Source: Escherichia coli
GTDB lineage: Bacteria > Pseudomonadota > Gammaproteobacteria > Enterobacterales > Enterobacteriaceae
DNA: 64,000 nt
Direction: 5' to 3' (one strand)
Assembly (NCBI RefSeq): GCF_030013205.1
Contig: NZ_CP122649.1
The stretch's first letter is position 1, and each line of letters begins with the position of its first letter. This document shows positions 57,001 to 60,000 of the stretch, piece by piece. The position numbers are program-made.

Positions 57001-60000
57001 AGCTGGTTGCGTACCGTGGCATTTAACCCCCTTAATCGCCAGACCATGGGGGGAAGCTGGTCGGGTACTGTGGCATTTAACCCCTTAATCGGCAGACCAT
57101 GGAGGGATTATTGCCGGGTACCAGGCCATTTAACCACTTACTCGTCTGTACACGATGGGATGCTGGTCGCGTAGCGCGGAATTGCTCCCCTATTCACCAG
57201 TTCTTTGCTAAAGGAAAGCAAGTCTAAAAGGTTTTCCGGCCAAAACTTTTTTTGTTTCACTACAGTTATTCGCCCTTCCGTTCAGCGTGATAAAATATAC
57301 AAAAACGTAGAGGTAACCCATAAAAGTAAAAGAGCTTATAAACCAGCTTAAAAGGCTCGACCCGGATGCGTATGTAGTAGTTGCTGGATTTGAAAACTAG
57401 TGTACTGGACACGTGGCTGAAGCAGATACCATTAAAGAATGCATGACAATTCCTGTACGAGCGGACAGCATGTCAGGTGACCGTACGCTTGCAAAAGATG
57501 GATCACCTTCAGTCTAGTTGAGGTGGGGAGATGACTACCGCACGGAATACTTCGTTAGTGCAATAGACGACACGGATGAATTGGCCTAATTATACGAATT
57601 GCCAAAAAACTCTCTTATTGTCAATTGGGGGTATGGGCAATTCATATTGATTGCCAAATATTTTTTGGGTATTCGGGATGTCCTAACAACAGGATTTGCC
57701 GAATACCCTATTTTTTTGCCAAATATTTCGTCATTCTAAGTCGAGATCCAGGCCGAATATCTTTTAATCTAATCCACTCAATAGACAGATTCTGGTGGGA
57801 TACTTATTGTGTACCGTCGTATTAAACCCACTTAACCGCTAGGGCGTCACGTTGTCCTGTCTGCAAGCCGAGGCAATTTCCCCTTTAGCCAATGACCACG
57901 GTGCCTGCTGGTCGGGTACCGTGGGATTTAACCCCCTTAATCGCCAGACCATGGAGGCAAGCTGGTCGGGTACCGTGGCATTTAACCCCCTTAATCGCCA
58001 GGCCATGGGGAGGCTGGTCGCGTAGCGTGGCATTTAACCCTTTAATCGCCAGGACATGGGGTCATGCTGGTCGGGTACCGTGGTATTTAACTCCCTTATT
58101 CGCCAGACCATGGGGAATGCTGGTCGCGTATCCTGGCATTTAACCCCCTTAATCGCCAGAGCATGGCGGGAAGCTGGTCGGGTACCGTGGCATTTAACCC
58201 CCTTAATCGCCAGCCCATGGGGAGGTTGGTCGCGTAGCGTGGCATTTAACCCCCTTAATCGCCAGGCCATGGAGGAATGCTGATCTCGTAGCGTGGCATT
58301 TAACCCCCTTAATCGCCAGCCCATGGGGAGGTTGGTCGCGTAGCGTGGCATTTAACCCCCTTAATCGCCAGGCCATGGAGGAATGCTGATCTCGTAGCGT
58401 GGCATTTAACCCCCTTAATCGCCAGGCTATGGGGAAGCTGGTCGCGTAGTGTGGCATTTAACCCACTTAATCGCCAGGCCATGGAGAAGCTGGTCGCGTA
58501 GCGTGGCATTTAACCCCCTTAATCGCCAGGCCATGGAGGAATGCTGGTCTCGTAGCGTGGCATTTAACCCCCTTAATCGCCAGGCTATGGGGAAGCTGGT
58601 CGCGTAGTGTGGCATTTAACCCCCTTAATCGCCAGGCCATGGAGAAGCTGGTCGCGTAGCGTGGCATTTAACCCCCTTAATCGCCAGGCCATGGAGGAAT
58701 GCTGGTCTCGTAGCGTGGCATTTAACCCCCTTAATCGCCAGGCTATGGGGAAGCTGGTCGCGTAGTGTGGCATTTAACCCCCTTAATCGCCAGGCCATGG
58801 AGAAGCTGGTCGCGTAGCGTGGCATTTAACCCCCTTAATCGCCAGGCCATGGGGAAGCTGGTCGCTTAGCGTGGCATTTAACCCCCTTAATCGCCAGAGC
58901 ATGGCGGGAAGCTGGTCGGGTACCGTGGCATTTAACCCCCTTAATCGCCAGGCCATGGAGGAATGCTGGTCTCGTACCATGGCATTTAACCCCCTTAATC
59001 GCCAGGCTATGGGGAAGCTGGTCGCTTAGCGTGGCATTTAACCCCCTTAATCGCCAGGCCATGGAGGAATGCTGGTCTCGTACCATGGCATTTAACCCCC
59101 TTAATCGCCAGGCTATGGGGTAATGCTGGTCGGGTACCGTGGGATTTAACCCCCTTATTGCCACATCTATGGAGTGATCCTGCTATGTCGGAAGATTGGT
59201 ATTGTTGATACTTAAGAGGCTTTTGGAAGACTTCAATGAACTGCCAATTGAAATTCAATAATGCAGATATTCCAAAATCTAAGAAAAGAATACAGAACGT
59301 TAGCGTAATAATAGAATTAAGGTTACTATTAAACGCATAACGCTAAAGTATACGCATTATGCGTAAAGTTTACGTATATACGTTTAATTTCACTATTTAG
59401 GTAAAGGGATCGGAAGAGAATGAATCTAATTGATAAGATCGCCCTTGTCGGTCAACGCATGAAGAGCGAGCAGATCTCTCTGAAAGAGTCATTATTGGTC
59501 TCTTCGAGGGTTTCGGTATCGGATGATAGTGTAGACGGTGTTGATCGCCTAATCTATAACCACTGCTTGAATAAAAAAAATCTGTCAGATTTTTTTGGTA
59601 AATCTCGCGTAACTTTTAACAAAATCTTAGCGGATCTTGAAGAAAAAGAACTGGTTGGTGCTCCTATCTACCAGAACAAAAACCATCTCTATACCCGCTG
59701 GGATGTCCAGAAAATAATGGATGCTCTGAACTATCCTCGATATAGCGACTACTACTGTAGCCGTACAATCGTAACGCAGAACCATAAGGGTGGTACGGGG
59801 AAGAGTACAACTTCAGGCGTTCTTGCAGTTGCGGCAGCACTTGATTTGCATCTAAACGCGCGGATACTGTTGATCGAATGGGACCCACAAGGGTCTATTG
59901 GAAGCGGGATGATCCAGAGCGTAGCGGAAGATGATGTTTTCCTGACTGCTATTGACGCCATCTTAGGGGTTTACGAAGAAGACTCAGATTACAGAAAATA

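Follow-up and report, generated by a model that had tools for sequence, protein, structure and literature searches.

A 23-bp perfect palindrome within parA of an IncHI1-type plasmid is very probably a fortuitous by-product of coding

The stretch of Escherichia coli DNA analysed here (64,000 nucleotides, hereafter the window) derives, as its sequence shows, from an IncHI1 plasmid of the R27/pHCM1 type. BLAST analysis revealed that the 2.5-kb region with parA and parB is shared at 100% identity with some 200 large conjugative plasmids from Salmonella, E. coli, Klebsiella and other bacteria, including pSRC27-H, pHCM1 and p852-MDR (pHCM1 and p852-MDR being typed IncHI1A). The two ORFs are annotated in the identical plasmids as a ParA family protein and a ParB family protein (RefSeq). 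Over the 501 bases compared, the window and a RefSeq-annotated IncHI1 plasmid differ by one upstream base. The parB start overlaps the parA stop (ATGA). Published work on incC of R27 (PMC4853401) has the RepFIA replicon as its subject and not the present par locus. The features of the locus that are discussed below are as follows.

59328..59388, unstranded: operator-like imperfect inverted repeat with 30-nt arms, upstream of parA
59420..60673, plus strand: parA, a 417-aa ORF (RefSeq ParA family protein WP_001048869.1)
59573..59596, plus strand: codons K52-F59 (KKNLSDFF), predicted first helix of a helix-turn-helix (HTH; AlphaFold2 helix 52-59) and the likely coding constraint behind the palindrome
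59574..59596, unstranded: perfect palindrome AAAAAAATCTG-T-CAGATTTTTTT, for which the analysis gave no sign of a function
59606..59644, plus strand: codons R63-E75, predicted HTH recognition helix (AlphaFold2 helix 63-75), with a beta wing (83-91; strands 83-85 and 88-91) after it
60670..61677, plus strand: parB, a 335-aa ORF (Pfam PF08775 ParB, E=8e-13; RefSeq ParB family protein)

Pfam analysis of the parA ORF returned AAA_31 (E=2e-19) together with CbiA and MipZ, which are ParA/MinD P-loop families, and residues 123-130 read KGGTGKST, the deviant Walker A motif (P-loop) of the ParA/MinD superfamily. A sequence search of the PDB matched Vibrio cholerae ParA2 (7npd), P1/P7 ParA (3ez2/3ez7) and Soj; the phmmer alignments to these solved ParAs begin only at residue 66, leaving the peptide encoded by the palindrome unmapped by sequence alone. 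An AlphaFold2 model was built from a 24-sequence alignment (mean pLDDT 81.9, pTM 0.85; mean pLDDT ~85 for residues 51-80), and it predicts a helix at residues 3-26, a low-confidence linker at 28-45, a helix at 52-59 and a turn at G60-K61-S62, followed by a helix at 63-75, strands at 83-85 and 88-91, a helix at 93-102 and then the ATPase domain. Foldseek searches with the full-length model found V. cholerae ParA2 (7npe; E=2e-22, TM 0.78) and P1 ParA (3ez2; E=7e-18). According to the model, the parA product is a type Ia partition ATPase in which a linker joins the N-terminal helix to a winged HTH, predicted to be formed by residues 52-102, with a Walker-type ATPase domain after it; the model and homology together suggest that helix 52-59 would belong to this DNA-binding HTH as its first helix.

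Type Ia ParA proteins possess an N-terminal domain of ~100 aa, the winged HTH of which binds inverted repeats of the protein's own promoter (PMC8465637). An N-terminal extension of this length with a winged HTH is what the AlphaFold2 model and the full-length Foldseek matches point to here, and the operon likewise has parB downstream and an inverted-repeat promoter region upstream (the operator role of which is putative). The host gene resembles P1/P7 ParA, F SopA/ParA_F and V. cholerae ParA2 in domain order, and its locus resembles theirs in having parB downstream and inverted repeats upstream, whereas in sequence the solved type Ia ParAs differ from the host ParA (17-26% identity). This likeness concerns the protein and confers no function on the palindrome itself. 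Among 24 relatives K52 never varies and L55 and G60 hardly do; the conservation of KKNLSDFF is best explained by its probable position as the first helix of the ParA winged HTH.

The palindrome reads AAAAAAATCTGTCAGATTTTTTT in full (23 bases), with two perfectly complementary 11-bp arms about a 1-nt centre (T). Its presence within parA had been reported in an earlier sequence-only reading, and re-reading of the sequence confirmed it, both arms matching. It starts 154 nt inside the coding sequence, at the second base of codon K52, and ends at the third base of codon F59, and the A run at its start is 8 long (59573-59580). The peptide given in that reading, NKKNLSDFFG, is correct and corresponds to ParA residues 51-60, and its placement of the palindrome in the N-terminal extension of ParA can be narrowed, with the help of the structure model, to the predicted first helix of the winged HTH. 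No second copy was found in the window, even when 3 mismatches were allowed.

At spacers of 0-5 nt this palindrome is the longest perfect one in the window, the runners-up having 9-bp arms. When the window was shuffled 500 times with its dinucleotides preserved, arms of at least 11 arose in 37 cases (7.4%), a null that is conservative because A runs of at least 7 exceed their first-order expectation (21 versus 11.8, ~1.8 times commoner). Two of the 9-bp-arm runners-up (955-973 and 21994-22011) likewise consist of an A run abutting a T run. When the protein was held fixed and parA was recoded synonymously according to parAB codon usage, 0.6% of the recodings reached 11-bp arms, and the exact codon string of the palindrome has a probability of P=0.0048 under the same usage, in which AAA accounts for a share of 0.60 of Lys codons. 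Arms of 9 bp (AAAAAAATC...GATTTTTTT) need only AAA AAA AAT C.. and GAT TTT TTT, and occur in 5.4% of the recodings. The palindrome is only a mild outlier, uncommon for one gene but not significant across 64 kb or across a plasmid of >200 kb. The earlier remark that such a palindrome is uncommon inside a gene holds for parA, where 0.6% of recodings produce one, but does not extend to the window as a whole, where 7.4% of shuffles do.

A BLAST search at lower stringency detected about 2,100 plasmids with a related parA, at 88%, 78%, 75-76% and about 72% nucleotide identity over the region. Representatives were taken from these (Leclercia pLEC-1cb1, a Citrobacter werkmanii plasmid, two IncHI2A plasmids, Klebsiella and E. 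coli plasmids typed IncHI1B/IncFIB, and one Providencia plasmid), a scan that took one genome from each species contributed a further 21 loci (Xenorhabdus, Commensalibacter, Vibrio, Photobacterium and others), and codon alignments were made of first 9 and then 30 parA relatives. Of the 30, only IncHI1, in every sequence examined, and the Leclercia plasmid, at 88% identity, carry the perfect palindrome. Although the peptide NKK[N/T]LSDFFGKSR is conserved across the enterobacterial plasmids, its spelling in DNA varies, as the codons for residues 52-59 illustrate.

IncHI1 and the Leclercia plasmid: AAA AAA AAT CTG TCA GAT TTT TTT, perfect palindrome
IncHI2: ... CTC TCT GAT TTT TTT, 9-bp arms with a 5-nt spacer
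Citrobacter: ... CTC TCC GAC TTC TTT, palindrome broken
Klebsiella types: AAA AAA ACT CTT TCG GAC TTC TTT, or ACT CTC TCT GAT TTC TTT, palindrome broken
Providencia: AAA ACA GCT CTG GCT GAT TTT TTT, palindrome destroyed by three amino-acid changes
Xenorhabdus, Vibrio and Photobacterium: AAG AAA, with differing residues

Codons K52, K53, N54 and F59 keep AAA, AAA, AAT and TTT in all close lineages, and third positions vary among the lineages that keep the peptide at four of the eight codons (L55, S56, D57 and F58). Within the palindrome, base 3 of L55 pairs with base 2 of S56, base 3 of S56 with base 2 of L55, and base 3 of both F58 and D57 with base 2 of the codons for Lys53 and Asn54, so that every third position has as its partner a base dictated by the peptide or base 1 of the Leu codon. 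A silent change therefore breaks a pair, and the conserved peptide leaves the partner no freedom to compensate. Were the palindrome under selection, these silent sites would be frozen; they vary in relatives, which suggests that the palindrome is not maintained.

Pairwise counts of synonymous differences between IncHI1 and each relative were also made for the eight codons and compared with an expectation taken from the rest of parA, with 2-fold and 4/6-fold codons treated apart; P is the probability of a count equal to or below the one observed.

Leclercia plasmid: 0 observed, 1.95 expected, P=0.10
Citrobacter: 4 observed, 3.77 expected, P=0.71
IncHI2 (Enterobacter): 2 observed, 3.84 expected, P=0.16
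IncHI2 (E. coli Sanji): 2 observed, 3.95 expected, P=0.14
Klebsiella pOXA1 type: 4 observed, 3.63 expected, P=0.75
Klebsiella JS187 type: 3 observed, 3.44 expected, P=0.52
Providencia: 0 observed, 2.78 expected, P=0.016 (one of seven non-independent tests)

These pairwise counts gave no excess synonymous conservation in the eight codons, the rate being that of the gene as a whole. The Providencia value could be taken as a hint of constraint but was discounted, the palindrome having already been lost there through the three amino-acid changes. In the Leclercia plasmid the palindrome is intact though the flanking codons carry several silent changes; the identical run around it, relative to IncHI1, is 32 nt long, and parA contains five runs of at least 32 nt. 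The sequence-only reading had proposed setting conservation of the palindrome against synonymous variation in parA homologues, and had named the same peptide in non-palindromic codons as the observation that would speak against a function. Conservation beyond the gene-wide synonymous rate did not emerge, and such codons are what IncHI2, Citrobacter and the Klebsiella types carry.

The inverted repeat upstream of parA served as a positive control. It contains a perfect palindromic core, TACGCATTATGCGTA (59351-59365), which persists unchanged in the Leclercia plasmid and the IncHI2 plasmid of E. coli Sanji and carries one mismatch in Citrobacter and in the Enterobacter IncHI2 plasmid, while the Klebsiella-type plasmids have a different inverted repeat with 29-nt arms in the same place upstream of parA. 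By analogy with the F and P1 promoters, the repeat at 59328-59388 is likely to be the true autoregulatory operator of parAB, and its conservation resembles that expected of a real type Ia operator, whereas that of the intragenic palindrome does not. Type Ia operators such as P1 parOP and F PparAB (hexamer inverted repeats about 28 bp apart) share with the palindrome that they are inverted-repeat DNA near parA; the palindrome differs from them in being intragenic, in having contiguous 11-bp arms rather than spaced hexamers, and in not being conserved in sister plasmids. Tandem arrays are also present at 56.9-59.2 kb and, with the 59328-59388 repeats, likely constitute regulatory DNA of the partition locus.

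Our data suggest that the palindrome is very probably a fortuitous by-product of coding and not a cis-acting element. When KKNLSDFF is written with the A/T-ending codons favoured by this plasmid (AAA AAA AAT C.. ... GAT TTT TTT), complementary arms of 9 bp follow automatically, because the AAA run for Lys complements the TTT run for Phe, and AATC complements GATT; the silent use of CTG for Leu55 and TCA for Ser56 in the IncHI1 clade happens to lengthen the arms to 11 bp. It is likely that no protein binds the palindrome. The caution in the sequence-only reading that so AT-rich a palindrome may be fortuitous is borne out by the non-palindromic codons for the same peptide and by the gene-wide synonymous rate, while its functional suggestions (an internal operator, or a recombination or pausing site) are disfavoured, since the palindrome is broken silently in sister plasmids. 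Taken together, all functional readings appear unlikely.

One such reading is that of a cis-acting site confined to the IncHI1 clade and acquired after the split from IncHI2, an operator or roadblock, or a bent A-tract/T-tract or cruciform, to which ParA, ParB, H-NS or IHF would bind. H-NS prefers AT-rich DNA with phased A and T tracts, and the palindrome is AT-rich with such tracts; every IncHI1 sequence examined, like the 88% relative, has it in perfect form, and 11-bp arms are rare when parA is recoded. However, conservation in the 88% relative lies within chance (P=0.10, with five equally long identical runs), and the palindrome is not conserved in IncHI2, Citrobacter or the Klebsiella types, though these share the operon and the peptide and carry a recognisably related upstream operator core. 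Its half-site AAATCTG is unlike the upstream ACGCAT/ATGCGT motifs and the tandem-repeat core ATTTAACCCCCTTAATCGCCA, it is present as a single copy in the window at up to 3 mismatches, and it lies 154 nt into the coding sequence, whereas type Ia ParA operators sit in the promoter (PMC8465637). Retention in related replicons, a promoter or 5' location and half-sites common to a regulon, by which an operator would be recognised, were all lacking at the palindrome, and an internal operator was rejected given the lack of conservation, the single copy and the absence of a motif common to the upstream repeats; a clade-specific site is accordingly very unlikely. A recurrent or mobile motif was likewise rejected, as the exact 23-mer is absent from viral contigs and, of the eight metagenome contigs that contain it, six carry this IncHI1 parA and the other two have it in unrelated, AT-rich non-coding sequence.

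At the RNA level, a hairpin in the mRNA might pause RNA polymerase or ribosomes, or act as a weak internal attenuator that tunes the levels of ParA and ParB. For the 23-mer, folding gives a stem of 10 bp closed by a 3-nt loop, at z=-2.9 relative to shuffled versions of itself, and the stem terminates in a U7 run, but the fold is weak (minimum free energy -4.6 kcal/mol), all pairs but two (G-C) are A-U, the U tract lies inside the stem and not after it, and z is about -1.4 in a 51-nt context on either strand; moreover, the pairing is broken in relatives in a way that makes compensation impossible. Intrinsic terminators and attenuators resemble the palindrome in combining a hairpin with a 3' U run, the palindrome being symmetric on both strands, but it differs from them in its lack of a G+C-rich stem, in the U run within the stem and in the low stability of the fold. 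Consensus scans of 59100-60100 found no promoter-like site and no terminator at the palindrome, the sole terminator-like match in this interval being at 60062-60035 on the minus strand. A terminator or attenuator was rejected on account of the weak stem without a G+C-rich part, the U tract within it and the negative scan, and a hairpin that tunes expression is extremely unlikely.

Slippage on the A8 and T7 runs, whether as a transcriptional or translational frameshift or as phase-variable indels, would yield a truncated N-terminal ParA of 60-63 aa, and we regard this as the least probable of the explanations considered. The A8 run (59573-59580) does extend across the in-frame AAA AAA and is kept in all close lineages, and shifts of +1 and -1 would stop after 10 and 7 codons, giving 63 and 60 aa, respectively. 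Against this, the context is T AAA AAA A, without the canonical X XXY YYZ heptamer, the tails in the alternative frames are short (7-10 codons), distant relatives interrupt the A run with AAG, ACA, ACG or GGC codons, and AAA is simply the commoner Lys codon here. Neither an in-frame slippery heptamer nor a conserved alternative product, the marks of programmed frameshifting, was found at the A8 run. An indel hot spot at A8/T7 was also rejected, the 1-nt length difference among IncHI1 sequences lying at 59402, upstream of the start codon (501 bases compared). A recently acquired regulatory function confined to IncHI1 and its 88% relative, whether as a bent or cruciform-prone site within parA that is bound by H-NS or ParA and damps transcription into parB, or as A8/T7 slippage that produces a short N-terminal ParA peptide, is likewise very unlikely.

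Had it proved to be an operator within the coding region of a type Ia par operon, the palindrome would have represented a modest novelty for partition control in the clinically important IncHI1 resistance plasmids. The reading as a by-product of coding, which we consider very probable, instead removes a false lead, and suggests that peptides combining Lys/Asn with Asp/Phe can, when written in AT-rich codons, yield long perfect palindromes.

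Besides the 23-bp palindrome within parA, further near-palindromes formed by an adjoining A-run and T-run occur in the window at 955-973, 21994-22011, 39806-39829 and 42592-42617, with AAAAAAAGTAACTTTTTTT and TATTTTTTTAAAAAAATA as examples of the class. Runs of at least seven A number 21, against approximately 11.8 expected from the dinucleotide content, so the composition of the plasmid favours AT palindromes of the A-run/T-run class.

Conservation across the relatives was greater in the motif D-R-L-I-Y-N-H (ParA residues D42-H48; window 59543-59563), which directly precedes the HTH, than in the HTH itself. 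Together with K52, this motif was invariant in all of the 24-30 relatives compared, including the ParAs of Vibrio and Photobacterium, at approximately 45-50% identity; ParA residues 28-45 are of low confidence in the AF2 model. Among the database records, a contig of 3 kb (CAMRAP010000221.1) that was assigned to an 'uncultured Odoribacter' MAG encodes a ParA N-terminus that is the same as that of Photobacterium piscicola, and is probably a mis-binned contig of plasmid or Vibrionaceae origin.

Three further features lie 5' of parA in the window:

56859-57107, tandem-repeat array with a 54-bp unit (4.6 copies), close upstream of parA
57906-59157, tandem-repeat array with a unit of ~53 bp over ~1.25 kb (TRF period 106, 11.8 copies), close upstream of parA
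59328-59388, operator-like inverted repeat (core 59351-59365), 32 nt 5' of the parA start

The core of the inverted repeat is a perfect 15-bp palindrome, TACGCATTATGCGTA, flanked by ACGCAT/ACGTAT motifs, and the operator-like repeat is kept in the IncHI2 and Citrobacter relatives. By analogy with F and P1, it is likely to be the real autoregulatory site of ParA. At 59402, within the GGTAAAGGGA stretch ~18 nt before the parA ATG, pHCM1 and p852-MDR have one additional A relative to the window; this small length polymorphism falls between the inverted repeat and the ribosome-binding region. The parAB region of pSRC27-H (NZ_CP058810.1) is identical to that of the IncHI1A-typed pHCM1 and p852-MDR; PLSDB/MOB-suite type this plasmid as IncFIA,IncQ1, a replicon call that seems to stem from the RepFIA-like replicon found in IncHI1 plasmids and not from another backbone.

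The array region yielded numerous ORFs in the ORF listing, as well as RefSeq 'hypothetical proteins' in the pSRC27-H locus (L001 580-885, 1563-1736, 1767-1994 and 2582-2740), all of which look like by-products of the repeats and not genes. Arrays are also found in the loci of relatives (L005:356-1215; L006:93-567): the core ATTTAACCCCCTTAATCGCCA of the window arrays is present again in the array upstream of the IncHI2 parA. In Klebsiella-type plasmids the equivalent position is occupied by a different, 65-bp array. The arrays upstream of parA are a candidate for the centromere or ParB-binding array of the partition module.
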